A stretch of DNA of 64,000 nt from Leptolyngbyaceae cyanobacterium. Its GTDB lineage: Bacteria; Cyanobacteriota; Cyanobacteriia; Phormidesmidales; Phormidesmidaceae. This document shows, piece after piece, positions 29,408-51,259 of this stretch (within the stretch, counting starts at the first letter, position 1; the number at the start of each line of letters is the position of its first letter). The DNA lies in NCBI GenBank assembly GCA_965263355.1, contig CBDHHL010000056.1:512001-576000 (forward strand). The letters are read 5' to 3'. The notes under the pieces were generated by a model. It saw only the letters and a program-made list of their open reading frames with translations. It was not told the origin of the DNA and made no database searches. The position numbers and the translations under genes were made by a program.

Positions 29408-30679
29408 TTATACCTGAGGCGGTACGTTAATCTCAAAGTGAATGTGATCATCATGCCCACCGAAACTTTGGCATAAACCTTTACGAATCAAAGCCGGATC
29501 ATTGAAATATAACGCTCCTTTATCAACCCAAGGTTGAGCCCTTAGTGCCTTAAGAATTGCCTCAGTCGCGTCACGGTCATAGTCAGAACTTGTCCATTGG
29601 ATGCCACCAAACCGACCGTCCTTGTGGGGCAACACCACATCTCCCGCATTCCCACTTTGGTGTCCGGCATGATCCGGTGTCCGCCCCCCTTTGGGTAAAC
29701 TGACATCATTAATAGCCATGGGAGCCACATCTGATTGGTTTTTGCGATAGGCCAGCTCGTAGTGAATACCAGCTGCTCGAATCACATTGCTCATCCAGTC
29801 AACACCATAATCATGAGTATCTCCCGGTTGGTCAAGTACCTCGAGGTTGTAGAAGCCTACCCCTTGCCCCGCCATCCGCATCCACTGGGGTGCATTGGCC
29901 AATTCCAAAAATCGTTGGGTTCTACCATTGACATCCACCCGTCCATCGCCTCGAATCGTCGTGCTTCCAGAGATTACCGATTGAAATAGCTGAATCGCCC
30001 GAATCAATTCATTCATAGAATTTCCCTGGGCAAAGTCATAGCCTAGTTCCACCAAACGGTCACGCACCAGTTTGACATCGCTAGTACGATTGGCACCGCG
30101 TGAACCAACACTGGCACTCAGGGCCAGTTTCTTCGCACCTGGATGCTTTTCAATGTAGGGAGTTAATGTGAGGGACGCGATGTCCGTGACCTGACCAGCA
30201 ACAACCTTAAGCCGCCGTAGTTGAGGCTTGGGTACCGCCAAAAAGACTGATTGAAATGCCCATTGTTTATTGGCATTAACTGTCGTTGTCGAAATAGCTT
30301 TTTGATTGTTGTCAACATATAAACTGACAGTCTTACCCACCAGGTCATTACTGGCGGTACCGGCTAGCTGATAGGGATGGTAGATTTTTACCTGATTAGG
30401 AACCTTGGTGATTTTGATGCCTTGGTTAGCTGGCACCTCAGGGTTTGGCGTCACTGGCTGTGTTGGCAGGGGTTGGGGTTCATCGGTACCAGTGCCAACA
30501 GACACCAGAAAAAAACCGGGTGCGTCGGTTCTATTTAGCCATTCTTTAAGCAGCTGAGTTCTAAAAAAGGTTTCACCGTCTACCTCACCTTGTCGAGGAG
30601 TCTTGTCTATTTTTTGACGGTAGTAGCCACCTTCCATCAGATAAATGGCTTTATCAGTTTCCTTAATCCAAGTCCCCAT
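29408..30679 (-). CDS. MepA-like (penicillin-insensitive murein endopeptidase-type) Zn peptidase with N-terminal accessory domains
   Basis: INDVSLPKGG..PDHAGHQSGNAGD and GHDDHIHF motifs. A peptidoglycan-binding-like segment precedes them. Confidence 0.75.
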   Translation of the reverse strand: MGTWIKETDKAIYLMEGGYYRQKIDKTPRQGEVDGETFFRTQLLKEWLNRTDAPGFFLVSVGTGTDEPQPLPTQPVTPNPEVPANQGIKITKVPNQVKIYHPYQLAGTASNDLVGKTVSLYVDNNQKAISTTTVNANKQWAFQSVFLAVPKPQLRRLKVVAGQVTDIASLTLTPYIEKHPGAKKLALSASVGSRGANRTSDVKLVRDRLVELGYDFAQGNSMNELIRAIQLFQSVISGSTTIRGDGRVDVNGRTQRFLELANAPQWMRMAGQGVGFYNLEVLDQPGDTHDYGVDWMSNVIRAAGIHYELAYRKNQSDVAPMAINDVSLPKGGRTPDHAGHQSGNAGDVVLPHKDGRFGGIQWTSSDYDRDATEAILKALRAQPWVDKGALYFNDPALIRKGLCQSFGGHDDHIHFEINVPPQV

Positions 30680-30929: not shown

Positions 30930-32249
30930 TTACACTGTCACCTGTGCTACGGAGATGGGAATTTCAATGGAAAACTGAGTGCCTTGCTGACCTAAATTAG
31001 GCTCACACCAGAGTTTTCCTTTATGGGTTTCAGTAACAATGCTATGACTGATGGAAAGCCCCATACCTGTACCTTTGCCAACTTCTTTGGTAGTGAAAAA
31101 GGGATTAAAAATTTGCGATCGCAACTCCTCAGGCACCCCTAACCCATTATCTATAATTCGAACCATTAATCGGTTGTTTTGAATCCGTGTCGAAATCTTA
31201 ATGACGCTAGGATCTTCCAAAGCTTCTGCCACTGTACGTTTAGCATCGCGCTCATTGACGGCTTCAATGGCATTACTCAACAGATTCATAAAGACTTGAT
31301 TGAGTTGCCCCGCATAACATTCAATTAGGGGCAATGAACCATAATCTTTAACAACATGGATGTCGGGATAGCTATTATTACGACGCAAATGACTTTGCAA
31401 AATACTCAGAGTACTATCAATACCCTGATGAATATCAGCTTGTTTAACCTCAGCCTCATGGAGCCTTGAAAAGGTCCGCAGAGAGGACACTATGGTACAA
31501 ATGCGTCTGGTGCCAAGACTCATAGATTGCAAGATTTTGACCAGATCTTTCTCAAGATAGTCAAGCTCAATCTCATCTATTTTGTTTGAAATTTCCTTTG
31601 GTGGGTTGGGAACGTGTTGTTTATAGAGTGCAACAATCTCCAATAGTTCCTTGACATAGCGCTCAGCATGGTTAAGATTAGCATGGATAAAATTTACTGG
31701 ATTATTGATTTCATGGGCAACACCAGCAACAAGTTGCCCCAAACTCAACATTTTCTCATTGTGCACCAGCTGTATTTGTGTTCTCTTAAGTTCCTCAAGG
31801 GCCTGATGTAATTCATTTTCCGCTTGTTTTCGCTCATTGATTTCACTAAGTAGCTGCATTTGCGTGTATCGCAATGTCAAATGCACCCTAATGCGAGCCA
31901 GTACCTCATCAGGATGGATGGGTTTAGTAATATAATCAACAGCTCCTATACTAAGCCCCTTAACCTTGTCAATTTCATCGGTTAAGGCCGTCATGAAAAT
32001 AACAGGAATATCTTGAGTTTTCGGATTTTGCTTAAGTTTTTCACAAACCTCAAATCCATTCATTCCTGGCATCATTACATCCAGTAAAATCAGATTTGGT
32101 ACGATTTTATCTAGTTTTTTAAAAGCGCTCTCTGCACTTTTTGCAACCGAAACCTTATAATTAGATTCCTGCAAAAACTCATAGAGAAGTTTGATGTTGG
32201 TAGGAATATCATCAACAATCAAAATCTCACTTCGTTGGGAACTCAACAT
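30930..32249 (-). CDS. Hybrid histidine kinase (REC-HisKA-HATPase)
   Basis: N-terminal receiver LILLDVMMP, H-box GVAHEINNP, and N/G1/F/G2 boxes. Confidence 0.93.
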   Translation of the reverse strand: MLSSQRSEILIVDDIPTNIKLLYEFLQESNYKVSVAKSAESAFKKLDKIVPNLILLDVMMPGMNGFEVCEKLKQNPKTQDIPVIFMTALTDEIDKVKGLSIGAVDYITKPIHPDEVLARIRVHLTLRYTQMQLLSEINERKQAENELHQALEELKRTQIQLVHNEKMLSLGQLVAGVAHEINNPVNFIHANLNHAERYVKELLEIVALYKQHVPNPPKEISNKIDEIELDYLEKDLVKILQSMSLGTRRICTIVSSLRTFSRLHEAEVKQADIHQGIDSTLSILQSHLRRNNSYPDIHVVKDYGSLPLIECYAGQLNQVFMNLLSNAIEAVNERDAKRTVAEALEDPSVIKISTRIQNNRLMVRIIDNGLGVPEELRSQIFNPFFTTKEVGKGTGMGLSISHSIVTETHKGKLWCEPNLGQQGTQFSIEIPISVAQVTV

Positions 32250-32379
32250 AATTTAGAGAGGTCCATAGGAATACATAATGAGAATGGCTAGCCTGTAAAA
32301 GAAGGCTTTACTATTGGGTTAGCCTAGCTTACCTAGATTTCCCAAAAGGTGATGGATTCCTAAAAAGAAACTTCATGGT

Positions 32380-35109
32380 TTAAAGATTTAAATGGGGGCT
32401 AACCAGCTGGACAATGCCTTCATCATCAAATTCATCAATCAGTTCCTGCAATTTGTTAACAAACTTTGTATAGTCTGGCCCCAACTTTTTAAGCTGAGCA
32501 ACCTCGGTTTGAATATCTGAGATATAGCCTTTCTCAGCTGCTTCATAGAGAGGAATGAGTACGTTCGACGGTGGCACTATCATTTCAGATTCAGGATCAG
32601 TTGGTACATTTTCAGTTTCAGGTTTTGGTTCATATTGCCAATCGAGTTGCAGCGTCTGCTGAAGCTGTTCTATTAATTCTTGTGCCTGTATTGGTTTAGC
32701 TAAGAAGCTGCTGAATCCCATCTCAAGGCAGGCTTGTCGGTCAAACCCAGATAGATGGGCAGAAGAGGCAATAACCGGTACTGATTGGACCTCTGGCAAC
32801 TTACGCAGCTGCTTAAATAAGCCATAGCCATCTAAATTAGGCATCAGCAAGTCTGTAATAATTAAATGTGGCAAAAATGATTGTGCTTTGGTCACCCCAT
32901 CTTGACCATCCTTGGCTTCAATCAGTTCAAAACCAAGGGGATCTAAAAGGTTGACAATCACAGAACGATTTTCCCAACGATCATCAACCACCAAAATTTT
33001 TCTGCGTTTACCCTCATATCCAATTAACCGGCCTAACGTCTGCTGCTGAAGATCAGCCTGTATCCAGTCCTCTGCCAGGGGACAACATACTTTAAATTCA
33101 AAGGTACTACCCTCGCCCAGCACACTTTTAACCTGAATGTGGCTATCCATCAACTCTATAATCCTTTGGCTGATGGCAAGGCCTAACCCCGTCCCTTCAA
33201 TGACATGCTTAGTATTATCTGTCTGTTCAAAGGGGGCAAAAATTTTTTCAAGATTATCAGCAGCAATACCAATACCCGTATCTACAACAGCAAAATGAAG
33301 TCCTATCAATGCTGAATCATCCGGATCAGGTTGGACGCCCACCCTCAGGGTTACATTACCTGCTTCAGTAAACTTGACTGCATTACCAATTAGGTTTAGC
33401 AAAACCTGACGCAGACGTTTTTCATCAGCCACAATCCCCGGTGGTAGTGTATCAAGGGGCTCAAAAATGATAGGTAGTTTTTTCTGCTCGGCTCGAATAC
33501 GGCAAATTTCAACAACACCTTGCAAAAAAGAAGGAAAATGGAAGGGTTTAGGGTTTAGTTCTAGCTTTCGTGCTTCTATTTTAGAGATATCTAAAATATC
33601 GTTAATTAAGGTTAAAAGATGACTGCCACATTCGGCAATGGTCTGAATGCTGCTGCGATCTTTCTTGGAGCGATTTTTTTGAATTTGTAGAATTTGGGCA
33701 TAGCCTAAAATGCCATTTAGTGGCGTTCTTAACTCATGGCTCATATTGGCCAAAAACTCGCTTTTAGCATGGTTAGCCGTATCTGCAGCTTTCTTCGCTT
33801 CGGCTAACTGGGCAGTACGCTCAGCCACTCTAGTTTCTAACATTTCAAAGGAATCTTTGATTTGTTTGGCCATGCGATTAAACGCAGATGATAATCCCCG
33901 TAATTCTTGAATACCCTTGACCTGAAGCGTTTGCTCAAGGTCGCCCATGGCAATGGCTTGACTAGCCAGATTTAACCGCTGAATAGGAGTCGTAATCCAA
34001 CGTGATGTCAGTATTCCTAATAAAGTCGCAGTCATCAAAGCCGCAATGCATAACATGATGGTATTGCGGGTATTGGCATTAATAACTCCCATAAAATCAG
34101 CTTCTGGGATAGTCACCACCACTAGCCAATCTAAACCATAGTCATCTTGCCAGGGAACCACCTGAACAAACTGTCGCTCTCCGTCTATTCGAAAGTCTAT
34201 CTGTTGAATATTTTGAATATTTTCAAATCCCTTAAACTCTGTTTTTAGATGTTGAGCTGTTGCTCGAATTATTGGATCAGAACTGTTTAGGGCACTAAGG
34301 CGTTGGGTTTCTCCACCGGCAACGTTGTAAGTTTTGGCTTCGCTAGAATTTCCTATCAGTAGTCCATCTCGTTCGATCAAAAAGGCTTTGCCATTAGGAC
34401 TAATGTCTAGTTTTTTCAGAAAATTACTAATATCACTAAGCAGCAAATCAATACTAAATGCACCAAAAAACTTGCCTGTAGGCTCATATAGAGGAAACGT
34501 AGCTGATGCGGCGACATAGTCCTCAAATCCTTCTGCGGTGTAAATACTACTCCAGGTAGGTTTGCCTGCATTGACAGCATCGATATACCACTGGTCCTCT
34601 GGAGCATAGTACTCAGTTGCATCTAATACATCGGTGCGATTACCCTGAGTATCTGTACCATAGGTGTAGTCTTTCCCATCGGCTAATGAATGTTCTACTA
34701 TAGTGACGCCTTGACCTTCCAGCCAGCGTCCAGCTCCTACCCCTTCTCCTGACTCAAGGTAGTAGCCAATAAAATTGATATCTGGATAGGTTTCTGCCTT
34801 TTTCCATAGGTTACGCCCCATTAGCTCAAAATTCCTGATATCAACGGTTCCAGCCTGTAGCTCATCGACCGTTATAGTTCCCAATTCATGGGGAAGCGAT
34901 AGATAACTATCTAGATGTTGATCGACCCGATTACTAATTTCCTTACTAAGGCGCAAAACCAGGTCATTAACAGCCCTTTGGCTATTTCTAAAAGACAGGT
35001 ATCCAACTAACCCTACCGCTGAGAAAATTTGCAACATAAAGGGGACGACAAGCACAAGGCTTAAAGGCGTCCCACGGAGCGTTTGACGATCTTTGCTGTC
35101 CATAGCCAC
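32380..35109 (-). CDS. Membrane hybrid sensor kinase (dCache-HAMP-HisKA-HATPase-REC)
   Basis: Two TM helices flank a Cache-like domain (QWYIDA...PTWSSIY). [13 protein letters not shown] and a C-terminal receiver follow. Confidence 0.93.
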
Positions 35110-35348
35110 AACTTTTCGGGCGCAACATTACAGGAAAATAGATGACGATGAGTCTTGCCAACCTTCTTATCAGGGTATTGGAAAAAACTAAACTCAGCTA
35201 TGTTCGCTATAATGCCCAGGACAAAATGGATAACTGCAGGGTATAAATGGCTACGTTATTATGTTGCACTACACACAATTAGCTAACTTAAACAGCGTGT
35301 AGTGCATGAAAATCTAACGCTTACGTTTCTTTGATCAAAACCGTGAAC

Positions 35349-36119
35349 TCAAGAAGATTTAACTCCACATGCAAAGATAGTATAGAAGAACCCCTGGTCT
35401 GCATATTCAGGTAAATCTCTAACACGAATGTCAAGATTAACAAAGCCATTGTCTAAAAAACAATTCATTACATCCTGAGGATTTAGTTCCGTAGAGGGGA
35501 AACAGGTCTCCCCTACGCGATAATAATTGCCTGAACCACAGGCTGAAGTAATAAGGGTACCGCCAGGCTTCACCATGCCCATAATATTAGTCATGTAGAT
35601 ACGCCATTCCTCTTTATTAAGACTAATGCCTTCTGCGCAGTAATGGGCGGTTACCAATGGGTAAAAGTTACGTTTAGTCTCTCCTAGTGGATTAGCCTGC
35701 CTGACATCACCTGGTGTAACAAGAGTAACTTTTTGCCGTACTTCTGACTCCCTCTGTTGAATCTCTGAAGGGGTAGGGGTTTGATGTCCTTCAAGTTGCA
35801 GTACTTTTTGAGTAAAAGAATGCCAATCGTAGGCTGTTTTATCAGCAGAGAACCATTTTTTTAGTTCGGTTAAATTGGACTCAACATATTCAGAAACATG
35901 AATTTCTTGGGTTTTGGTCACCAAAGGTAAAATATGGGAGATAATGGGTCCACTACCGAAATCTAATGCCACCGGAACAGAATCGATGCGCTTTAAAGAC
36001 TCAGTCAAAAACTCCAAACAGTATTGTTCATCAGGCATGATACCTGAATAATATTCTTGTAAATACTGTTTAGGATCCCAATCGGAATAATTGGCGTATT
36101 TAATCTCAACAGCTTGCAT
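35349..36119 (-). CDS. NNMT/PNMT/TEMT-family SAM-dependent methyltransferase
   Basis: WDPKQYLQEYY, LDFGSGP, SEYVESNL.EL.KW, AYDW, DV....PL, CAE, VKPGG.L and YYRVG...F motifs. Confidence 0.85.
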   Translation of the reverse strand: MQAVEIKYANYSDWDPKQYLQEYYSGIMPDEQYCLEFLTESLKRIDSVPVALDFGSGPIISHILPLVTKTQEIHVSEYVESNLTELKKWFSADKTAYDWHSFTQKVLQLEGHQTPTPSEIQQRESEVRQKVTLVTPGDVRQANPLGETKRNFYPLVTAHYCAEGISLNKEEWRIYMTNIMGMVKPGGTLITSACGSGNYYRVGETCFPSTELNPQDVMNCFLDNGFVNLDIRVRDLPEYADQGFFYTIFACGVKSS

Positions 36120-36172
36120 AGGTTTTCTCCAATTTTATCAAGGACTAGTCGTGTTCAGGGTGGTCATCAACA

Positions 36173-39100
36173 TTAACTAATATTGTCCAGATATTTTGCT
36201 AACAGGCAACTATCAATTGTTGGACAAGTAATATTGGATTGATTCAGGCCCTTTAGAGTATTTTGGCAATCAAACATTTGGGTGCCTGCTAACCAAATTT
36301 CTAATCGAGTAAGCGAATGTCCGTGCACAACTTCCGTCAAAATTTTAGCTAGTGGGCTGAGGGCGTTCTGCATTTTATTCAACTTAGTTTGCCAATGCTC
36401 ATAGGATACTTGTCTAACCGCATAGCCAACATTGTTAAGCTGATGGACAAGTTTATCTAACGGATAAGGGTAAGGATTTACTAGATGAAAAGCTTGATTC
36501 AAGGATTCTGTTTGCAATGATAGATGAACTATCGCTCGACTAACATAATCGACGGGTGTCATGTCGATTATCCAATCTAAATCAGGCGCACTTTCAAGCG
36601 CAATAACACTATTTAGAAAGCGGCTCATTAAATCTGTTGAGTTACATATTCCCGTTTGAGTGTGGCCGGTTACCATCCCTGGGCGATAGATACAAGCTGG
36701 AATACCCGCTGAAATCGCCCGTGTGATCAGCTGTTCTGCCACCCATTTGCTTTGGGCATAGCCGCCGACAATTCCAGATCCTTGGGCGATATTATCACTT
36801 TCATAAATAACCGATGGTCCCATGGTTAGCAATGATTCAAACACATCTAAGGTGGAGATGTAGTGAACGGGCTTAAGCCTATCATAGCTGGCAAGCTTTA
36901 ATATGGATTGAGTGCCCAGCACATTTGCCGCCTTTAAAGCTCCATAGGGGTAAAACAGATTCACACTTGCCGCACTGTGGTAAATGACATCTATAGTGTT
37001 AGCCAGGTGCTTAAATTGTTCTCTTTCTAGTCCCAAGAGAGGACGAGCTATATTGCCAATAAGGGGTTTGATTCTGCTGTAGGGAATATCAACATTTGGC
37101 AAATTCTGCTGTAGGGATTGACGTAATCGCTGATACCCTTCTGTAAGGGTTTGTGCCCGTACTAAGCAATAAACAGTAGCATCTGTATGTTGCAATAGGG
37201 TATGTAACAAGGAGGTGCCAATAAATCCTGTTGCCCCCGTTAATAAAATTGCCTTCGGATTTGTCCAATGTGATACAGGCTTTGACCAATGATTATATGA
37301 GGCAGCAGATGAAATCAGGTTAAGCGATGCTTCAGTCTCTAGTTCAGATAGAGACATATATTCTGTTATCGTAGAAGGCTTTCGGTCATGCTTTAATTGT
37401 TTGCCTACTAACTGTTTGGATAAATCTGCGATGGTTGGTTGCTTAAAGAAATCAGTAAAATTGAGTATTACTTTGAAAGAACGCTCAATTTGCGACATTA
37501 GCTGCATTACTCGTAATGAGTCACCACCCAACTCGAAAAAGCTATCATTAATCCCAATCGGTGAAATATTCAAAACATCTGCCCAAATACTGGCTAGTTT
37601 CTCTTCTTGAGCTGTTTCGGGTGCTACAAACAGAGCAGAGAGTTCTGGTCGGGACGAATCAGGTATAGGTAGCGCTTGTCGATCAATCTTACCATTGGCA
37701 TTGAGAGGAAAACTGTCTAACAGTACAAATGTTGCGGGCACCATGTACTTGGGTAGCTTTTGCATTGTATAGGTGCGCAGCTGAGTCGAAAGTGTATGGG
37801 CTATTTTGGCCTGGAGGGGATTATTGGCATAGGTATGCCAGACTTGACACGATGGTGGTGGGATGGGGGCTGGTAGTGGTTCAATACTCCCCAACTTATA
37901 GTCAACACCAGTGGCTTGGGGTTTAAACAGGGCATTAAAAGAACCATTATTGGCTAAACTGGGCCAGCTAATGGTCACATCGTAGGATAGCTCAGTCGCA
38001 AGCTGTTTGAGCGCTTCAGGATCGACGCCGACGATATTCTTAGTTTGCCTGAGATAATCTTTCAGATTAGCAACGTTACCAGAGAGTTGGATTTGCTTAC
38101 GTACATCAACAACACTGACATGGGGTAAAACTCTCGCATTAGGGATATTGCGAAAACCAAATACTTTGGTGGAGGAGTTCTTTAATCGTTGACGTAGTTC
38201 AGAAAAATCAGCATAGTGTGGCTGCCAATCTAACCAACGAGTTTCAAGTATGGATTGGGGCGTTGAGCCTACATGTAAGACAACGTCATAGCGAAATTGA
38301 CTTAGTTCATTATGAAATTGGCTTTGTTTCAGCAAAATTTGAACCTGGCTAATCTGGGGTAAATGCTTTTGCAGCGCCAAGAAAAAAGAAGGATCGATCG
38401 TGAGTTCTTCTTCTTGATATATCCTTTTCTGAATACGTTGCCAGAGTTCTGTGATGGGTAGGTCATCATCAGCATTGGCTAATTCTATAGCCGCTGCAAA
38501 TGCCTCTTGCAAGAGATAATTTCTGATGTCTCCGATAAACAGAGAACCCCCTGGTTTGATTAACCGTACAGCTTGTTCTATAACAGAAACTAAGTAATCA
38601 ATACTTGGGAAGTATTGTAAAACCGAGTTTAAGATGACCGTGTCATAGGAAGCAGGGGCTATATTTTCAAAGTTATCGGCAGCCCTATTTTTAAGGGTGA
38701 CTCGTGGTGCTAACTCTGGAGTCTTTGCCAACTGTTTTTTAATGTGGTCTAAAGAAACGTCTGATATGTCGGTGCCAATGTAGCTTTTACAGTGTGACAC
38801 TACTTGAAATAACAATAACCCTGTGCCACATCCCAGTTCTAAAACTCGTTCCGGCTTGAGTTGTAAGATTCGCTCAACAGTGGTGCTGACCCATTCCTGC
38901 ATCTCAATATCCGGCAGCAGCTCACCTGTGTAACTGCTGATCCAGCCACTGATGTTGAAAGTATCATCCCACTCTGTGTTGACTGTATTTAAGTGGTCAT
39001 CGTTATGAATTGCTTGCCATTGGTTGATTTGTTCTTGTTCTAGTTGGTCACGAATTGACCTGTCAGCAGTGGTGTTAGGGCAACTGCTTTGATCTGACAT

Positions 39101-40579
39101 ACAATGCTGCAAATGGCTTTTCACATAGGCAATTAACCGGTTACTACCCAGACTATCTGTTTGTGCTATAACAACAGCCTCTTGGACATCAGGATGCTGT
39201 GCTAAAAGAGTTTCAATTTCTTGTAATTCAACTCGAAAGCCTCGAATTTTAATTTGATTATCGGCACGCCCCAAAAATTCTAACTGGCCATCGTCACGAT
39301 AGCGAGCTAAATCACCCGTTTTATAGAGCCGGATAGCTTGTGTCTCTCCGTCTAAAGCAGTTACTAAAAACTTATTGGCTGTGAGATCAGCACGGTTTAG
39401 ATAGCCTGCTGCCAGGCTTCGTCCACTGAGATATAGGTCCCCTGAATTTCCCTGAGGGACTGGTTTCATACGCTCATCAAGAATATGGGCCTGAATATTG
39501 TTCAGGGGTTGTCCAATGGGAATACTTTCTCCGTGATTAAGCTTGATGGCATAGGGACCTGCTAGGTGACAATATGTAGCAACAACAGTACTTTCTGTTG
39601 GGCCATAGGTGTTTACCAACTGTACTTTAGGACTAACAAATCGTTGCCAGATAGTTACCCATTGGGGGAGTGCTCGCTCCCCACCAATAATGGTGAGTCG
39701 AATGGTTGAGGCTAAACCTAGGGTTTCTAGGGAGGCACACAATTGATGCCAAAAGGCAGTGGGTAAATCTAAAACAGTTATCTGTAACGTGTTGCATGCG
39801 TCAAGAAAGTCTGGCATTGACTTGAGCATGTTTTCATCACGGAGCACCAATGTAGCCCCTTGGGTAAGCGTTAGAAAGATTTCCTCAATGGCGGCATCAA
39901 AGCTAATTGATGAAAATTGCAATACGCGATCGCATGCGACAACACTATAGGCCTGGTTGGCTGAATGCACAAAATTTGACAACGCCCTCTGGTCTACCAT
40001 GACACCTTTAGGTTTACCTGTTGAACCAGACGTATAAATGACGTAAGCCAAATGGTCTAAAGTAGGCAACGATATGGGGTTATGGTCTGGCTGTTGGGTA
40101 ATAAGGGGCCAATCGGTTTCCAGGCAAATCAGTTTTGCTTTATGGGTTGGGAGAGCTGAAGCTAGAAATTGTTGCGTAAGTAACAATGAGACTTGAGAAT
40201 CTTCTAACATCCAGTCAAGACGCTCTGAAGGATAGCCAGGGTCCAAAGGAACATAGGCTCCACCTGCTTTCAGGATAGCTAATACCCCCACAATCATTTG
40301 AAAGGAGCGTTCAAGGCATAGACCGACCAATACGTCTGGACCGACACCTTGCTCACGTAAATAATGAGCAAGCTGATTTGCATAGGCATTTAATGTTTGA
40401 TAGCTCCAACATTGCCCCATAAACTCAATTGCCGGGGCTGTAGGCCGTTGCAGAACCTGAGATTCAAATAATCTACAGACAGATGCTGGGTTCTCAGCAG
40501 AAACAGTCAGGAGACAATCCCTAAAGTTGGTAAAAACCATGTATTGATTTCCCTCAAATACTGATAGCAGGTTTGACAA
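36173..40579 (-). CDS. Stand-alone single-module NRPS: adenylation domain with embedded methyltransferase, PCP, thioester reductase
   Basis: A motifs YTSGSTGKPKG, NTYGPTE, YKTGD, GRADNQIKIRGFRVE, NGKIDR. MT VLELGCGTG, PCP GGDSL, R LTGATGFIG and YAQSK. No condensation domain. Start may be ATG 40540. Confidence 0.93.
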   Translation of the reverse strand: MSNLLSVFEGNQYMVFTNFRDCLLTVSAENPASVCRLFESQVLQRPTAPAIEFMGQCWSYQTLNAYANQLAHYLREQGVGPDVLVGLCLERSFQMIVGVLAILKAGGAYVPLDPGYPSERLDWMLEDSQVSLLLTQQFLASALPTHKAKLICLETDWPLITQQPDHNPISLPTLDHLAYVIYTSGSTGKPKGVMVDQRALSNFVHSANQAYSVVACDRVLQFSSISFDAAIEEIFLTLTQGATLVLRDENMLKSMPDFLDACNTLQITVLDLPTAFWHQLCASLETLGLASTIRLTIIGGERALPQWVTIWQRFVSPKVQLVNTYGPTESTVVATYCHLAGPYAIKLNHGESIPIGQPLNNIQAHILDERMKPVPQGNSGDLYLSGRSLAAGYLNRADLTANKFLVTALDGETQAIRLYKTGDLARYRDDGQLEFLGRADNQIKIRGFRVELQEIETLLAQHPDVQEAVVIAQTDSLGSNRLIAYVKSHLQHCMSDQSSCPNTTADRSIRDQLEQEQINQWQAIHNDDHLNTVNTEWDDTFNISGWISSYTGELLPDIEMQEWVSTTVERILQLKPERVLELGCGTGLLLFQVVSHCKSYIGTDISDVSLDHIKKQLAKTPELAPRVTLKNRAADNFENIAPASYDTVILNSVLQYFPSIDYLVSVIEQAVRLIKPGGSLFIGDIRNYLLQEAFAAAIELANADDDLPITELWQRIQKRIYQEEELTIDPSFFLALQKHLPQISQVQILLKQSQFHNELSQFRYDVVLHVGSTPQSILETRWLDWQPHYADFSELRQRLKNSSTKVFGFRNIPNARVLPHVSVVDVRKQIQLSGNVANLKDYLRQTKNIVGVDPEALKQLATELSYDVTISWPSLANNGSFNALFKPQATGVDYKLGSIEPLPAPIPPPSCQVWHTYANNPLQAKIAHTLSTQLRTYTMQKLPKYMVPATFVLLDSFPLNANGKIDRQALPIPDSSRPELSALFVAPETAQEEKLASIWADVLNISPIGINDSFFELGGDSLRVMQLMSQIERSFKVILNFTDFFKQPTIADLSKQLVGKQLKHDRKPSTITEYMSLSELETEASLNLISSAASYNHWSKPVSHWTNPKAILLTGATGFIGTSLLHTLLQHTDATVYCLVRAQTLTEGYQRLRQSLQQNLPNVDIPYSRIKPLIGNIARPLLGLEREQFKHLANTIDVIYHSAASVNLFYPYGALKAANVLGTQSILKLASYDRLKPVHYISTLDVFESLLTMGPSVIYESDNIAQGSGIVGGYAQSKWVAEQLITRAISAGIPACIYRPGMVTGHTQTGICNSTDLMSRFLNSVIALESAPDLDWIIDMTPVDYVSRAIVHLSLQTESLNQAFHLVNPYPYPLDKLVHQLNNVGYAVRQVSYEHWQTKLNKMQNALSPLAKILTEVVHGHSLTRLEIWLAGTQMFDCQNTLKGLNQSNITCPTIDSCLLAKYLDNIS

Positions 40580-41439
40580 CCTGGACTTTTAAGAGCTGAA
40601 CACAGGGATACACCATCAGGCCATACTCTCGGACCTGAATAATGCCACTAAAGCACAAGACTCTGATTTAACAGAGAAAGGGAAGAAAAAAATGTCTTAT
40701 AAAATCATTGGTTGTGATACGACTTATGATGAACTAGGAAGATTTTGATCCCAACAGGAGATTACATTCACAGGCTGACGAGCTAGCTAGCTAGCTAACT
40801 TCATACCATAGAGGGATATTATAAGCTTCTCTATCTCTCATATTTTTTTGATACCCATAGTCATGGCAAATGGTAAACGTGTTATTTCAAAGCAAACGTT
40901 GACATGTGCTAGATATCAATACGCGACGATAATCTGCATTGATAAGCCGACTGGATCACTGGATCAAAAATAACCAATCATAAATCATCTGCTATTTCAG
41001 ATGATTCAGTAAAAACAAAAACATGAAGTTTCTCTCACTGATCTTGTTTTACGCTTTATTTCCCCTTGATAAAAACCGTATTTGGGATTTTACGTTGTAG
41101 TAAAAGTTACAGTGATTTGATTATCGCGTTTTTTCTTTTATGAATTTTTTATAGAAAACTTAGTTTTTAAGGGCTATGACATTGGTTCATACCTATGAAT
41201 ACTTAGATATTTTTTTTAGAAATTTTGTTGTATTATGCAGATTTTTATCCATATGGGTACCAAAACGTAAAAGTATGACTTTGAGAACAGCTTTGCAATG
41301 AATTGATAATCCGTCTTTAAATATTTTCTTAGTATTTTTCATGTTTTCTCAGTATTTTCTCAGTTAGCATCTGGAAATTCGGTTTTATCTAGCCATGCTG
41401 GCGACGTCCACCTATAGTTTTAGTCTCTGATGTTCTCGC

Positions 41440-41469
41440 TATGGGCGAGATGTGGACATCTCGCCCATA
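41440..41469. repeat. Perfect palindrome, REP-like
   Basis: TATGGGCGAGATGT-GG-ACATCTCGCCCATA, 14-bp arms. Confidence 0.65.
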
Positions 41470-41943
41470 AACCTGAAGTGAGCATTTTGGCACTCTAAAA
41501 AAGCAGATGTAAAACTAACATCTGTGAATATTCCCGACTCCCTGATGCCACCAAACTACACTTAGCCCAACTGGAAAAGGTTGTCGTTCTCAATCTAGAA
41601 TTCGATAGGCCTTTTCTTTAATGGCTGCTCTGTCTTTCTTGGTTTTTATGTTTACACTTTTTCTTGCTTCGTAATGTTACTACCAGGAGAGAATGAAATT
41701 CTTTGTCTACTGGAAAACAAAGGAATGAATCTTAAGAAACGTTGTTATGCTTTACTGGTATTTATACTTACTTCTGAAGTACGCACTGAGTATTTAAACC
41801 TTGTCCACCTCCAGAACTGCAGTTTTGCCGTAGAGGTAACTCCAGGTTGAACCTTGGACGTGGCTTAAGTACCTAAATTAAGGCAGGCTCTACGCCATTT
41901 GTATCGGTCATCTTGGCAGTTTTCTGCAAGGTAGCATTCATTT

Positions 41944-41991
41944 AAAAAACTAGGCCATTGACTCCGCAGACTAAGGAGAGCAATGGCCTAG
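41944..41991 (-). terminator. Intrinsic terminator of the CHRD gene
   Basis: CTAGGCCATTG...CAATGGCCTAG stem followed by T6 on the minus strand. Confidence 0.65.
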
Positions 41992-42021
41992 GCTAAGTAG
42001 ATTAGTGTTGCATTCCCATGA

Positions 42022-45000
42022 CTACACGATGTTGGTAAAGCTACTTTCTGTTAGGTTTTCTGTAGCTACCCCCTGCAATGTTGCTAAGACGCCATTGTCA
42101 ACAATGATGTCATTGCCAGCAAAGGTGAGCTGATTAAAGCTGAGACCACTGGACAAACTAATTAGATCGATACCCACCTTAAAGTCGGTAATAGTATCGA
42201 TACCGCTACCTACCATCAGGACAAAGGTGTTATAGCCCTGACCACCAGCAAGAACATCATTGCCAGCCCCACCGTCTAGGACGTCGTTCCCCGTCCCGCC
42301 AATCAACATATCGGTACCGATACCGCCTTTTAAGGTGTCGTTACCAATGCCCCCTTGGAGGAAGTCGTCGCCACTGTTGCCAAACAGCAAGTCGTCGCCC
42401 ATGCCACCCTTGACAGTGTCATGATCACCACCTCCCTTGAGGGTATCCTGACCCTGGCCACCAAACACCTTGTCGTTGCCAGTGCCTCCCTTAAGCTGAT
42501 CGTTACCGACACCCCCATCCAGGTCGTCGTTACCGTCTCCACCGTTGAGGATGTCGTTACCAATGCCCCCCTGGAGAAAGTCGTCGCCACTGTGACCAAA
42601 AAGTCGGTCGTCGCCCATGCCGCCCTTAACGGTGTCATCGCCACTACCCCCTCTAAGGGTGTCCTGACCCTGACCGCCAAACAACGTGTCGTTATCAGCA
42701 TTTCCTCGAAGCAGATCATTACCGGCACCACTATCTAAATTGTCGTTACCGTCTCCACCTCTTAAGGTGTCGTCACCAACACCATCTTTGAGAACATCGT
42801 CGCCCGTGCTACCCACAAGCAGGTCATTGCCGGGGCCACCCCTTAAGGTGTCATTGCCACCCTGACCGTGAATAATTTGGTCACCTGGGCCACCCACAAT
42901 GGTGTCGTCAGCATTAGTCCCCATAATGGTTTCTGCTGCCTCAAACAGCGGTATTACCTGGCCACGAATTGCACCGGGCGTCTTCAGTGCATCAGACTCG
43001 ACAGTGTGAATCTGAATGTAGAGTTCACCGGCTTGCAGTTCGTCAAGAAAGTCGCTGAGGGGCTTTGTTTCAGGATCGTCATCGGTATCGCCGTCGCCAT
43101 TCAGGTCAGTGGCATCGGCATCATTCCAGATACCGGTGATAATGCCGTTCTCAAAGTCAACAACAAGATTGTCGTCATCCTCACTGGGTAAGCCAAAAAT
43201 ATTTAAGGTATGGGGTCCATTTTCACCTTCGGGCCCCAAGTGTAAATGAATGCGCGTGACATCATTGGCTTCGGTGCGGCTGGCACTATCTTCCTTGAGG
43301 GCTAACCCTTCAAGCTTAATCTGATAGGCTAGGCCGCTGCCATCTTCTGCCAAGATAAATGTAGCGGTTGCACCTGCAGTGGAGTCAGGAATAGCGTCAT
43401 CTTGAACAACCTGTTCACCATCGGCTACCAGGGTAAACACGTCTGCTTTTAGGGGTGGCTCAATCTGACCACGAACACCACCAAGGATGCCTAATCTATC
43501 AGATTTCGCATCGTGGATTTGAACATAGAGGTCACCTGCCTCTAGCTCATCTAAAAAGTCGCTAAAGGCCTTAGATTCAGGACCATCATTGGTGTCACCG
43601 TCGCCGTTCAGGTCAGTGGCATCATCATCATCCCAAAAACCTTTGAGAATACCGTTCTCAAAGTCAACTTCAAGATCGTTGTCATCTTCACTGGGAAGAC
43701 CAAAGATATTTAAGGTATGGGGACCATTTTCACCCACAGGCCCGCTATGGATATGAATCTTGGTGACATCATTGTCCTCAGTACGGCTGGTCGGATCTGC
43801 TTTGAGGGTTAAACCATCAATGTCGATCTCATAGGCCAGGCCGTCTTTAGTGCGCGTAAAGCTAGCCTTGGCAGTGGCGGTCGAATCAGGAATAGAGTCA
43901 TCTTGAACAACCTGTTCACCATCGCCCACTAGCGTAAAGTTATCCACTTCGTCGATGGGGATAATCTGACCACGGGCACTGCCTGGGGTACCCAGTCGGT
44001 CGGATTCAACATCGTGGATTTGGATATAAAGATCACCGGCCCGCAAAGCTTCCAGAAACTCATTGAGGGGTTTGGATTCGGGACCGTCAGCGGTATCGCC
44101 ATCACCGTTGAGGTCTCTGGCATCATCGTTGTCCCACTGACCGGTAATGATCCCGTTCTCATAGTCCACTATGAGATTGTTGTCATCTTCGCTAGGCAGG
44201 CCAAAAATATTCAGGGTGTGGGGACCATTGGCACCGCGTTCACCGGCATGGATGTGAATACGAGTGACATCGTTGTCTGCGGTCCGATCGTCGGGGTTTT
44301 CCTTGAGGGTGAGATCATTGAGTTTGATTTGGTAGGCCAAGCCGCTGCCGTCTTCTGCCAGAATAAAGGTGACGGTAGCTGTGGCATCACTATCGGCAAT
44401 GGCTGGATCTTGAACGACTTGGGGACCGTTTGCGATCGCAACAAAAACCTCCTGCGTCGACGCCATTGGTTTAGTCACCGATGGATCCAGCTGGCCCCGC
44501 ACAGTACCGGGAGTACCGAGCTGATCGGTAGCCACATCATGGAGCTGCAGATAAAGCTGCCGCGCTTTTAACTCATCAATCAGCTGGCTTAATGGTTTAG
44601 TCTCGGGCGGATCATCGGTATCGCCATCCCCAGTTAGATCAACGGCATCATCATCTCCCCAGACACCAACAATCACGTTCTGTTGATGGTCAACCAACAA
44701 ATTATTGTCATCTTCGCTAGGAAGACCAAAGATATTCAGGGCGTGGGGACCGTTTAGACCTTCGGCCCCCTGATGTAGGTGAATCTTAGTAACATCATTA
44801 TCTGCCGTGCGCTTGGCAGGGTCCGCTTCCAGATTTAGGCCATCCAGTTCGATTTGATAGGCCAGCAGTTCCCCATGCTTAAGGGGCGTAAATGTCGCTT
44901 TTGCTGTAGCCGTGGAGTCAGGAATAGACGACGGTTGAACTACCTTGTCACCTTCAGCTAGCAGGGTAAAACTGTTGTCAGATTTGAGGGGCGTAATCTG

Positions 45001-45537
45001 TCCCCTAACTACACCGGGGGTACCCAGCTGGTCCGATGCCACATCGTGTACCTGGATGTAGAGTTCGCCTGCGTCTAAGGCGTCAAGAAATTCGCTTAAG
45101 GGTTTGGATTCAGGGTCATCATTGGTGTCACCATCGCCATTGAGATCCTTGGCATCCCGATCTTGCCAGATACCTGTGATGATGTTGTTTTCATAATCAA
45201 CGACCAAATCGTCGTCATCTTCACTAGGCTTACCAAAAATATTCAGGGTATGGCCACCATTAGTGCCGGGAGCCCCGACATGGAAATGAATCTTAGTAAC
45301 GTCGTTGGCTTCGGTGCGGCTAAGGGGATCTGCCTTAAGATTCAAACCATTGAGTTGGATTTTATAAGCTAACCCGCTATTATCTTCCGCCATAAGCAGT
45401 GTGACGATGGCAGTAGCGGTGGAATCAGTGATGGTTTCATCTTGCACCACCTGCTCCCCATCAGCTAGTGCAAGAAAGGCAGGTGTGGATTTATCTATTC
45501 CTGAAGGAGCTAGGCGATCAGTCATGGGTTCTAACAA
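42022..45537 (-). CDS. Five tandem CHRD-like domains plus RTX calcium-binding repeats
   Basis: Five ~172-aa repeats (VTxIHxHxG..G.NG.H...G.LYIQxH...G..RGQ), then GGxGxDxLx nonapeptides and a DxITDF C-terminus typical of type I secretion substrates. Confidence 0.85.
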   Translation of the reverse strand: MLEPMTDRLAPSGIDKSTPAFLALADGEQVVQDETITDSTATAIVTLLMAEDNSGLAYKIQLNGLNLKADPLSRTEANDVTKIHFHVGAPGTNGGHTLNIFGKPSEDDDDLVVDYENNIITGIWQDRDAKDLNGDGDTNDDPESKPLSEFLDALDAGELYIQVHDVASDQLGTPGVVRGQITPLKSDNSFTLLAEGDKVVQPSSIPDSTATAKATFTPLKHGELLAYQIELDGLNLEADPAKRTADNDVTKIHLHQGAEGLNGPHALNIFGLPSEDDNNLLVDHQQNVIVGVWGDDDAVDLTGDGDTDDPPETKPLSQLIDELKARQLYLQLHDVATDQLGTPGTVRGQLDPSVTKPMASTQEVFVAIANGPQVVQDPAIADSDATATVTFILAEDGSGLAYQIKLNDLTLKENPDDRTADNDVTRIHIHAGERGANGPHTLNIFGLPSEDDNNLIVDYENGIITGQWDNDDARDLNGDGDTADGPESKPLNEFLEALRAGDLYIQIHDVESDRLGTPGSARGQIIPIDEVDNFTLVGDGEQVVQDDSIPDSTATAKASFTRTKDGLAYEIDIDGLTLKADPTSRTEDNDVTKIHIHSGPVGENGPHTLNIFGLPSEDDNDLEVDFENGILKGFWDDDDATDLNGDGDTNDGPESKAFSDFLDELEAGDLYVQIHDAKSDRLGILGGVRGQIEPPLKADVFTLVADGEQVVQDDAIPDSTAGATATFILAEDGSGLAYQIKLEGLALKEDSASRTEANDVTRIHLHLGPEGENGPHTLNIFGLPSEDDDNLVVDFENGIITGIWNDADATDLNGDGDTDDDPETKPLSDFLDELQAGELYIQIHTVESDALKTPGAIRGQVIPLFEAAETIMGTNADDTIVGGPGDQIIHGQGGNDTLRGGPGNDLLVGSTGDDVLKDGVGDDTLRGGDGNDNLDSGAGNDLLRGNADNDTLFGGQGQDTLRGGSGDDTVKGGMGDDRLFGHSGDDFLQGGIGNDILNGGDGNDDLDGGVGNDQLKGGTGNDKVFGGQGQDTLKGGGDHDTVKGGMGDDLLFGNSGDDFLQGGIGNDTLKGGIGTDMLIGGTGNDVLDGGAGNDVLAGGQGYNTFVLMVGSGIDTITDFKVGIDLISLSSGLSFNQLTFAGNDIIVDNGVLATLQGVATENLTESSFTNIV

Positions 45538-49594: not shown

Positions 49595-51208
49595 GTGAAT
49601 CCAATTCAGATCGCTACCTGGGATGAGGTGCCCGATCGTCAGCCGATGGCTGCGATCGCAGAGGGCGTTGATCTCGTCATTGTGCGTTGGGACGATAATG
49701 TTTCTGTTCTTTATGGTCGCTGTCAGCATCGCGGTGCCCTGATGGCCGATGGCTATATTGAAGGCGACAATATTATCTGCGGTGTTCACCAGTGGGACTA
49801 TCGCTTTGACAGCGGCGTCAGCGCCTATAGCAACGACGAATATTTAGATAAGTTCCATGCCTGGGTAGAGGACGATGGCGTATTTGTGGATGCCGCTGAA
49901 ATCATTGCCTGGAAGGAAGACCATCCCCAGCCCTATGATCGCGATGCCTACCAGGGAGCCTATGCCGATATCCATGGCACCATAGAAGAACCCCACACTA
50001 AACTCATTCACGAACTAGCCGCCAATGGCCTAAGTAAAACCGGACACCACGGCCCGGTAGCCGCCATGGGTGTTCCAGGTCCAGAATTGCCCCGTTGGGA
50101 GAATCTACAGTTTGTCACTGCACAGCTGGCCCGATTGCCCCAGTTAGAAGAGATTCCCGTGGCAACAGAGCTGGTGATTGGTCCCCGAGCCAAGCAGCCC
50201 CTCAAGTTAGACATGCCCATTTTTGTTTCAGACATGAGCTTTGGAGCCCTATCAGAAGAGGCTAAGATCGCCCTGGCTAAAGGTGCAGAATTAGCGGGCA
50301 CTGGCATCTGTTCTGGTGAGGGGGGCATGCTACCAGAGGAACAAGGTAACAACAGCCGCTACTTTTACGAATTAGCCTCTGCCCGATTTGGGTTTTCCTT
50401 GGAGAAACTGACACAGGTGCAGGCATTCCACTTTAAGTGTGGTCAGGGGGCTAAGACCGGCACAGGAGGACACCTGCCTGGCCATAAGGTAAAAGGCAAA
50501 ATTGCAGAAGTGCGGGGCCTGAAGGAAGGAGAACCTGCCGTTTCTCCACCTCGTTTTCCTGACTGGGAATCTGTTGAGGATTTTCGCAACTTTGCCGCAA
50601 CAGTGCGGGATATAACAGGCGGTATTCCTATCGGGGTCAAACTATCTGCACAACACATTGAGCAAGATATTGAAGCCGCTCTCCGCATTGGAGTGGATTA
50701 TATTATCTTGGATGGTCGTGGGGGTGGTACCGGTGCGGCTCCGCTGATCTTCCGAGATAACATTTCCGTGCCAACAATTCCAGCCCTGGCACGGGCAAGA
50801 AAATATTTGGATCAGCGCGGTGCCAGTCACGTCACCCTGATTATTACCGGCGGCCTCCGCACCCCTGCAGACTTTACCAAGGCCCTGGCCCTGGGTGCAG
50901 ACGGTATTGCTGTATCCAATGCGGCGATTCAGGCCATTGGCTGTTTGGGCATGCGGGCCTGTCACACCAACAATTGTCCGGTGGGCATTGCTACCCAGAA
51001 AGAGAATTTGCGATCGCGCCTGATCATCGACGATGCGGCCCTACGGCTGCAGCGATTCTTCAATGCCTCGGTGGAACTTATGCAGGTACTTGCCCGTGCC
51101 TGTGGTCATACCCATCTCAATCAGTTTTGTCAGGATGACTTAACCACCTGGGATCGAGAAATGGCCTACCTTGCAGGTGTTAACTATGCCGGTGTGACGC
51201 CATTGTAA
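49595..51208 (+). CDS. Rieske [2Fe-2S] domain fused to an FMN-binding glutamate synthase-like domain
   Basis: CQH...CGVH Rieske ligands, MSFGALS, SGEGG, GQGAK, DGRGGGTGAAP and the [3Fe-4S] motif CLGMRACHTNNC. Confidence 0.88.
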   Translation: MNPIQIATWDEVPDRQPMAAIAEGVDLVIVRWDDNVSVLYGRCQHRGALMADGYIEGDNIICGVHQWDYRFDSGVSAYSNDEYLDKFHAWVEDDGVFVDAAEIIAWKEDHPQPYDRDAYQGAYADIHGTIEEPHTKLIHELAANGLSKTGHHGPVAAMGVPGPELPRWENLQFVTAQLARLPQLEEIPVATELVIGPRAKQPLKLDMPIFVSDMSFGALSEEAKIALAKGAELAGTGICSGEGGMLPEEQGNNSRYFYELASARFGFSLEKLTQVQAFHFKCGQGAKTGTGGHLPGHKVKGKIAEVRGLKEGEPAVSPPRFPDWESVEDFRNFAATVRDITGGIPIGVKLSAQHIEQDIEAALRIGVDYIILDGRGGGTGAAPLIFRDNISVPTIPALARARKYLDQRGASHVTLIITGGLRTPADFTKALALGADGIAVSNAAIQAIGCLGMRACHTNNCPVGIATQKENLRSRLIIDDAALRLQRFFNASVELMQVLARACGHTHLNQFCQDDLTTWDREMAYLAGVNYAGVTPL

Positions 51209-51259
51209 CTAGACTCGAATTAATTATTATCCCCCCGCTGTCTAATCAGGAGAACGTTT

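Follow-up and report, generated by a model that had tools for sequence, protein, structure and literature searches.

A four-gene locus in a Leptolyngbyaceae cyanobacterium is probably a real and conserved signal-receptor system that has not been described before. It lies on the minus strand of a 64,000-nucleotide stretch of contig CBDHHL010000056.1 (assembly GCA_965263355.1, positions 512,001 to 576,000), here called the window. The locus pairs a single-module enzyme of the nonribosomal peptide synthetase (NRPS) kind and a PNMT-like N-methyltransferase with a membrane sensor kinase and a cytoplasmic kinase. Judging from the sequences, we consider it fairly likely that the locus is a signal synthase with its cognate receptor: an N-methylated lysinol-type diamine would be bound by the sensor kinase in the periplasm and the signal relayed through the second kinase. 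Four computational observations carry this reading: the anatomy of the locus, the conserved linkage of its genes, the loss from the sensor of an arginine that binds carboxylates, and the joint change of enzyme and sensor among relatives.

Locus organization

The four open reading frames (ORFs) lie in tandem, separated by gaps of 53, 239 and 130 bp. The genes and their domains are as follows.

36173..40579, minus: stand-alone NRPS-like enzyme with adenylation (A), methyltransferase (MT), carrier (T) and reductase (R) domains in the order A-MT-T-R, no condensation (C) domain (domain profiles; core motifs)
39116..40468, minus: adenylation core, pocket DAEDIGTVVK (pocket code; NCBIfam MxcG as top model)
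38120..39049, minus: methyltransferase inserted in the adenylation domain (best solved match 5WMM)
37415..37603, minus: carrier domain, the GGDSL serine being residue 1021 (domain profile, motif)
36176..37249, minus: terminal thioester reductase domain (TIGR01746; MxaA 4U7W)
35349..36119, minus: NNMT/PNMT/TEMT-family N-methyltransferase, not a GntF orthologue (PF01234; structure model)
32380..35109, minus: membrane hybrid kinase, transmembrane-dCache-transmembrane-HAMP-HisKA(H458)-HATPase-REC(D753) (domain profiles)
34075..34998, minus: periplasmic dCache sensor, predicted (sequence motif; structure model)
30930..32249, minus: cytoplasmic REC(D57)-kinase(H179), no DNA-binding domain (domain profiles)

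The original prediction, made from the letters of the sequence, had described four co-oriented genes with these gaps, a C-domain-less NRPS with an embedded methyltransferase and terminal reductase, and an NNMT/PNMT/TEMT-family second gene. The ORF coordinates, the domain scan and a PF01234 score of 128.7 bits bear it out on these points. It had also spoken of dCache hybrid kinases in the plural, which holds for the first kinase and not for the second.

The NRPS-like synthase

The synthase is 1468 residues long from a TTG codon and 1455 from an ATG at 40540, the latter being the likely start. Its Pfam domains are AMP-binding (38-394), methyltransferase (580-680), PP-binding (993-1055) and NAD_binding_4 (1113-1350), and the Pfam scan found no Condensation domain in it. 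With A, T and R domains, core motifs intact in all nine aligned proteins and no C domain, it is a stand-alone A-T-R enzyme.

The pocket D-A-E-D-I-G-T-V-V-K was read from motif-anchored positions, numbered in what we take to be the GrsA scheme, and is the same in seven of eight aligned relatives. The top NCBIfam model of the A region is that of MxcG (NF038078), presumably a lysine-loading enzyme, at 805.5 bits; with a cut-off of 2300 and no C domain in the synthase, an MxcG equivalog was rejected. The best single-domain solved match is ApnA A1, which we take to activate Arg and Tyr. The pocket agrees at 8 of 10 positions with the Lys code DGEDHGTVVK (PMC12283262, section 11) and also shares much of the arginine consensus given there; the parts seen of PMC7150779 held no usable pocket codes. 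The earlier reading of this pocket by eye, as a basic-amino-acid type, thus survives the motif-anchored reading and the comparison with the Lys code. Since the pocket matches the Lys code and partly the Arg consensus, and given the MxcG model and the ApnA A1 match, lysine is the likely yet not certain substrate; arginine is a good deal less probable, and ornithine less probable still.

The best solved match of the inserted methyltransferase is 5WMM (E 1.3e-49), presumably the TioS N-methyltransferase. The R domain scores 331 bits against TIGR01746 (cut-off 213), and its best solved match is MxaA 4U7W (E 2e-88). Because of this resemblance to the MxaA reductase domain, we infer reductive release of an aldehyde or alcohol.

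The N-methyltransferase and GntF

The structure model of the second enzyme (predicted local distance difference test score, pLDDT, 90.8) has template-modeling scores of 0.79-0.86 to NNMT, PNMT and INMT. It shares family and fold with these animal enzymes at 22-27% identity.

The original prediction had pointed to kinship with GntF, the guanitoxin N-methyltransferase. The kinship stands at the level of family and fold; orthology does not, the identity to GntF of a complete gnt cluster (L027; L numbers denote loci) being about 30%, and the guanitoxin context is not shared. The proposal that the enzyme is GntF and the locus part of a toxin pathway can draw on a score of 123.6 bits against NF041360 (GntF), above the cut-off of 60, and on close homologues that carry the database name GntF. 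However, two true GntF proteins, one of them within the complete cluster, score 613-615 bits, and GntD is found in none of four genomes carrying a window-type locus, whereas it was detected in a positive control. A Pfam scan of the 26 window ORFs found no other gnt genes, just as had been claimed. With these scores, 30% identity and no gnt neighbors, METHYLTRANSFERASE was rejected as GntF; the guanitoxin reading is largely refuted, and we find it scarcely credible.

At its 60-bit cut-off, NF041360 gives the name GntF to many methyltransferases outside guanitoxin synthesis, which may mislead toxin surveys, and database labels of this kind can wrongly mark genomes as guanitoxin producers. A true GntF orthologue (L026:9596-10420, 614.7 bits) has no further gnt gene in the 20 kb examined and adjoins a chemotaxis-like cluster.

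The sensor kinase and the REC-kinase

The first kinase has dCache_1, HAMP, HisKA, HATPase and REC domains and hydrophobic segments at 18-36 and 350-368; by profile and predicted structure, a double Cache fold lies between two membrane helices. The sensor model (pLDDT 92.1) matches PscC (Z 22.5, root-mean-square deviation 3.1, 243 aligned) and PctD (Z 21.9, deviation 3.0, 258 aligned). Fold searches support dCache but leave the ligand unnamed, as receptors for amino acids, choline and histamine tie within about 1-3 Z.

The sensor retains Y168, W174, Y190 and D221 of the amino-acid motif, with D172 in place of the motif Arg. This Arg, equivalent to R126 of PctA, binds the amino-acid carboxylate (bioRxiv 2023.04.06.535858). 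With Asp172 at this position, membership of the amino-acid class, dCache_1AA, was rejected. At the positions of PctD Y206 (aromatic) and M215 (hydrophobic), sequence alignment places small residues in the window sensor; this motif is known from a text description, and McpX also lacks the aromatic. The sensor thus shares its fold and the aromatic and Asp positions with the dCache_1AA and amine-binding dCache_1AM sensors (bioRxiv 2023.04.06.535858), but lacks the Arg of the former and, by alignment, seems to lack the aromatic and hydrophobic positions after Tyr190 of the latter. As judged from these residues, it is probably a third dCache_1 type.

All 18 synthase-linked sensors of the window type form one clade (support 0.999), and all are without the motif Arg (17 Asp, 1 Gly). 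The Arg is kept in 17 of 19 unlinked paralogues, one truncated paralogue having been left out of the comparison. Arg-retaining dCache paralogues in two genomes adjoin a glutaminase and a ParA/MinD-like gene (L038:9201-12839, L039:8909-14253).

The second kinase consists of REC and HATPase domains and has neither a Cache domain, a membrane segment nor a DNA-binding domain. From its domains and position, it is likely the next phosphorelay step after the sensor kinase, which it follows in L002, L003, L005, L006, L024, L079, L080 and several of the Gly/Ala-type loci described below.

Conservation of the linkage

PNMT-like genes of this family were found in 4/401, 1/4, 10/172, 3/401 and 7/389 genomes of overlapping samples; a metagenome scan added one locus, nearly identical to L004 and counted once. 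The surroundings of the METHYLTRANSFERASE gene were examined for 17 non-GntF genes and 3 true gntF genes. A dCache kinase lies at most two genes away in 14 of the 17 and in none of the 3. The complete four-gene order recurs in L002, L005, L006 and the distant L024 (identity 52, 68, 56 and 47%), while L001 and L004 have three of the genes and reach contig edges. The original prediction would have fallen had NRPS and methyltransferase not been linked to the kinases elsewhere; the linkage is conserved in several cyanobacterial groups. The exceptions among the 17 are L035 and L102, described below, and L034, where the methyltransferase stands alone and NRPS and sensor adjoin each other elsewhere in the genome (L040).

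Three front ends accompany the PNMT-like gene and a kinase: the NRPS, a Rieske oxygenase (L028-L030), and an S-adenosylmethionine (SAM) methyltransferase with a group II pyridoxal-phosphate (PLP) decarboxylase, separate in L025 and fused in L101 and L103. Decarboxylation and thioester reduction have in common that they remove the carboxylate. The decarboxylase loci (L025:7114-12974, L101:5198-10388, L103:7223-13618) hold SAM methyltransferase, PLP decarboxylase, PNMT-like methyltransferase and dCache kinase; among solved structures, the decarboxylase is matched best by 4OBU, by DOPA decarboxylases and by one from the desferrioxamine pathway. They are predicted to be an animal-like route to a methylated biogenic amine in cyanobacteria. 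The Rieske loci (L028:9547-15651, L029:749-7377, L030:3855-10353) combine a distant PNMT-like gene with a GbcA-like oxygenase, a kinase whose sensor is of an unrelated Cache type, and a REC-kinase. By gene content they appear to be an independent cassette of the same design.

The linkage extends to a wider family of synthases. The MT-T-R part of the enzyme was matched in at least 39/401 and at least 11/172 genomes, which are lower bounds because only 2-4 candidates were scored per genome. All 50 neighborhoods were examined, 41 of stand-alone enzymes and 9 of enzymes with condensation domains. A membrane receptor stands beside 28 of the 41: a dCache kinase at most three genes away in 24, and an amino-acid-permease-PAS protein in 4. 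Among the condensation-domain enzymes one of nine has a Cache sensor (L083), and L065 has a cut kinase gene upstream. The difference has a Fisher p of 0.002, an optimistic value because the genomes are related. Chance adjacency would be a few percent at most, because a genome holds 6-14 dCache_1 matches (five genomes). The notion that multimodular enzymes never have a sensor was rejected, as L083 has one.

The permease-PAS proteins adjoin Gly-type A-MT-T-R enzymes (L042:6640-10305, L043:4664-6600, L048:8302-10962, L054:742-4431). They have a kinase or GGDEF-EAL output, one being cut by a contig end, and by sequence are putative transporter-like receptors in place of the dCache kinase. Two loci (L036:6070-14954, L083:2-10522) combine an NRPS with a flavin amine oxidase, a NIPSNAP gene and a sister-clade dCache kinase; the oxidase may act on an amine signal, either inactivating it or maturing it. 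A distinct and conserved type of orphan cluster is seen in L046, L047, L053, L058, L063 and L067, where a multimodular C-A-MT-T-R enzyme precedes a class III aminotransferase and, in many cases, a thioesterase. One NRPS (P0060) has a SET domain fused onto its C-terminus.

Joint change of receptor and enzyme

The adenylation pockets of the family sort into a Lys type, a Gly type and a putative Ala type. The Gly type follows the code DILQLGMIWK (PMC12283262, section 10). The receptors sort with the pockets. Where a receptor is present, the window-type sensor accompanies all nine Lys-type enzymes and none of the 19 Gly/Ala-type, which have a second Cache clade in 15 cases and the permease receptor in 4. 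The top solved matches of the second-clade sensor include PacA (7PSG), 3LIB and McpX (6D8V), which belong to the amine-binding, AM-motif class; the Gly/Ala-linked sensors thus resemble dCache_1AM receptors (bioRxiv 2023.04.06.535858).

In the 14 complete second-clade loci, the trees of MT, R and kinase agree with one another, whereas in the A tree and the sensor tree alike the loci fall together according to pocket type. Between L055 and L061 the identity is 97% for MT, 86% for R and 93% for the kinase, as against 45% for A and 50% for the sensor. Sliding-window identity drops at NRPS residues ~130-480 and kinase residues ~60-240, and the same two dips are seen in L051/L059 and L066/L070. For three pairs of closely related genomes, sequence comparison thus indicates a joint exchange of adenylation core and distal sensor module. 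In approximately unbiased (AU) tests a clade of L055+L061 is rejected, as is one of L051+L059, both for the sensor (p 5e-4 and 4e-4) and for A; the p-values are optimistic because the groups were named post hoc and related genomes are not independent. For kinase, MT and R the tests also rule out a clade of the six Ala-type loci, a group that the sensor tree has with moderate support (82/88). All six Ala-type-linked sensors (L052, L055, L059, L060, L066, L073), and none of nine Gly-type-linked ones, have a cysteine pair in the distal module.

Two separate segments have changed jointly, and therefore linkage alone is a poor explanation. This bears on the possibility that the genes merely travel together as a block of mobile DNA. 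The patchy distribution (39/401 and 11/172 genomes), the changing flanks and the relic loci L035 and L011 are what such hitchhiking would leave. Yet the exchanged segments are not adjacent, receptors of three unrelated kinds and three different front ends are each met repeatedly, and gene order and orientation vary among loci (L040, L073, L100, L103). We regard hitchhiking as very improbable.

A second alternative is that the kinase reads the product as a private feedback gauge of a metabolite (an osmolyte, a membrane head-group precursor or a deterrent) rather than as a cell-to-cell signal. Going by the pocket types, Gly-type enzymes could give N-methyl-ethanolamines or choline-like compounds, which are ordinary metabolites, and L044, L057, L062, L072 and L077 sit with kinases, transporters, short-chain dehydrogenases/reductases or sulfotransferases but lack a receptor. 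However, that close relatives have more than once changed product type and receptor in step is the behavior of a private signal and hard to explain for a housekeeping solute, and the sensor is predicted to face the periplasm. This makes the gauge unlikely, though it is the strongest of the alternatives.

Receptor and enzyme also change together where the tailoring methyltransferase is lost. L001, with the PNMT-like gene, and L079, without it, show 82-90% identity across the domains of enzyme and kinase. In the two sensor modules their identity is only 66% and 57%, whereas L001 there matches the more distant window at 84% and 80%. The two loci are sisters in the kinase (99/99) and R (100/98) trees, and not in that of the sensor (p 1.7e-4). 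The MT-less loci L079-L081 form a clade in the sensor (96/95), a clade rejected for kinase and R; PF01234 was not found in their genomes. In L080 and L081 a SET-domain gene and a gene resembling the lysine/ornithine halogenases HalD and BesD occupy the place of the methyltransferase (L080:9046-10307, L081:4597-5959), which fits chemistry on a lysine side chain. As active halogenases the latter were rejected, their iron-binding histidines being missing.

These loci speak to a third alternative, a cluster-situated regulator: the kinase would respond to an outside cue or to the precursor and turn the enzymes on, the product serving otherwise. Two-component genes are common next to biosynthetic genes, and co-variation with the A domain would be expected of a receptor for the precursor as well. 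Yet the sensor no longer has the Arg by which amino-acid carboxylates are bound, and it changes with loss of the tailoring methyltransferase although the precursor stays the same. We hold such a regulator to be distinctly unlikely. In sum, synthase and receptor are genetically linked and co-vary, as those of an autoinducer system do.

Proposed mechanism

In the signal-receptor reading, which we prefer, the A domain would load lysine onto the carrier and the embedded methyltransferase would methylate its alpha-amine. Release by the R domain would turn the carboxyl into an alcohol, or into an aldehyde able to close to a cyclic imine. The PNMT-like enzyme would methylate the remaining primary amine. 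By its predicted chemistry the window product is probably a small N-methylated lysinol-type diamine without a carboxylate. It would get to the periplasm and settle in the distal pocket of the dCache domain, its two amines possibly held by Asp172 and Asp221. The hybrid kinase would then hand phosphate to the REC-kinase, and this to an output. Every chemical and physiological step here, including the product, its binding and export, co-transcription and output, we infer.

Several findings weigh against this reading. Thirteen of the 41 stand-alone synthases have no receptor nearby, and no exporter gene was found in the window's locus (MATE, EamA or SMR genes adjoin the relatives L001, L079, L044 and L077). 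By alignment, the window sensor does not seem to fit the published amine motif. Among the 150 nearest sensor cluster representatives, 90 have Glu or Asp at the Arg position and 13 have Arg; the acidic residue therefore marks a broad subfamily, and the idea that Arg-to-Asp is unique to synthase-linked sensors was rejected. The groups of the AU tests were chosen after the first trees, from related genomes. As the methyltransferase gene and the sensor DNA are contiguous, a single recombination tract could explain the pattern of methyltransferase loss and sensor change without selection. There are also incomplete loci: L035 is a relic without a kinase; L102 is an A-T-R enzyme without embedded MT or kinase, at a contig edge; in G003 the NRPS is relocated and prematurely ended while methyltransferase and kinases remain; and in G580 the methyltransferase is apart from the NRPS-kinase pair.

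A broader proposal, which we see as evenly balanced, is that of a widespread cyanobacterial class of autoinducers that has so far escaped description. Single-module A-MT-T-R enzymes, or pairs of a methyltransferase and a decarboxylase, would produce N-methylated amino alcohols and amines, and cognate dCache kinases or permease-like receptors would detect them. Strains would switch dialect by joint exchange of the adenylation core and the distal sensor module, or by gain or loss of a tailoring methyltransferase, the window representing the lysine dialect.

For filamentous and mat-forming cyanobacteria, the signals that cells themselves make and pass to one another are poorly defined. The family supplies synthases that can be named, products that can be predicted and receptors to go with them, and its natural swap pairs serve as internal controls; the signaling question is thereby open to direct test. 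If the reading is true, an orphan NRPS family catalogued long ago would gain a function and the dCache_1 sensors a third ligand class.

Relation to known systems

Synthase/receptor pairs are known from quorum sensing (CqsA/CqsS, LqsA/LqsS, LuxM/LuxN), and specificity groups from agr and ComQXP. The window locus shares with them a small-molecule synthase beside a membrane histidine kinase, and joint variation of synthase and sensor over a conserved kinase core. It differs in that the synthase is an NRPS-like reductase with N-methylation, the receptor is of the dCache_1 kind, and the predicted signal is a methylated amino alcohol.

Among NRPS enzymes, the A domain is nearest the model of MxcG (myxochelin) and the R domain nearest MxaA (myxalamid). 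LtxA releases its product, N-methyl-valyl-tryptophanol, by reduction (PMC10673588), as predicted for the window synthase. Unlike these three, the window synthase has no condensation domain, hence no peptide bond, and a product of a single amino acid is predicted.

Judging by size, the synthase has so far been listed only among orphan enzymes. Calteau et al. (2014; PMC4247773) list a 4,347-bp orphan NRPS in PCC 7375, a size (the only basis of the comparison) equal to that of the L002 orthologue counted from ATG. Their family CF-55 comprises six single-gene NRPSs of 4.2-4.5 kb with product unknown; its PCC 7437 entry (4,314 bp) fits, again by size only, the 1437-residue homologue P0138. The terms histidine kinase and signal are absent from the main text, and the parts seen give no domain chemistry, receptor link or function. 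Strict multi-term searches of the open-access literature found no description of the enzyme-receptor link, which is weak evidence of absence.

Flanking regions and neighboring genes

Two features flank the locus.

29408..30679, minus: possible fifth gene, peptidoglycan-binding/M74-peptidase-like, membership uncertain (an Atlas lead only, with a fairly high score)
40580..42021, no strand: upstream intergenic region of 1442 bp, presumed promoter zone (position only)

An M74-peptidase-like gene also lies downstream of the REC-kinase in L002, L005, L080 and, in part, L003. Promoter-like sites in the upstream region were not above chance (20 against 29 expected), and a terminator scan was likewise at or below chance.

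Directly upstream of the locus is a gene for a 1171-residue protein that has five CHRD domains along with calcium-binding repeats of the RTX type (42022-45537, minus), which is not conserved at the same place in relatives. Elsewhere in the window, 2209-15138 (minus) encodes a 4309-residue protein with Ig-like, animal haem peroxidase, FG-GAP and RHS repeat domains. At 49595-53212 (plus), in a stretch of higher G+C content (52-55%), two adjoining genes encode N-terminal Rieske domains fused to a glutamate-synthase flavin mononucleotide domain and to a thiamine-diphosphate enzyme.

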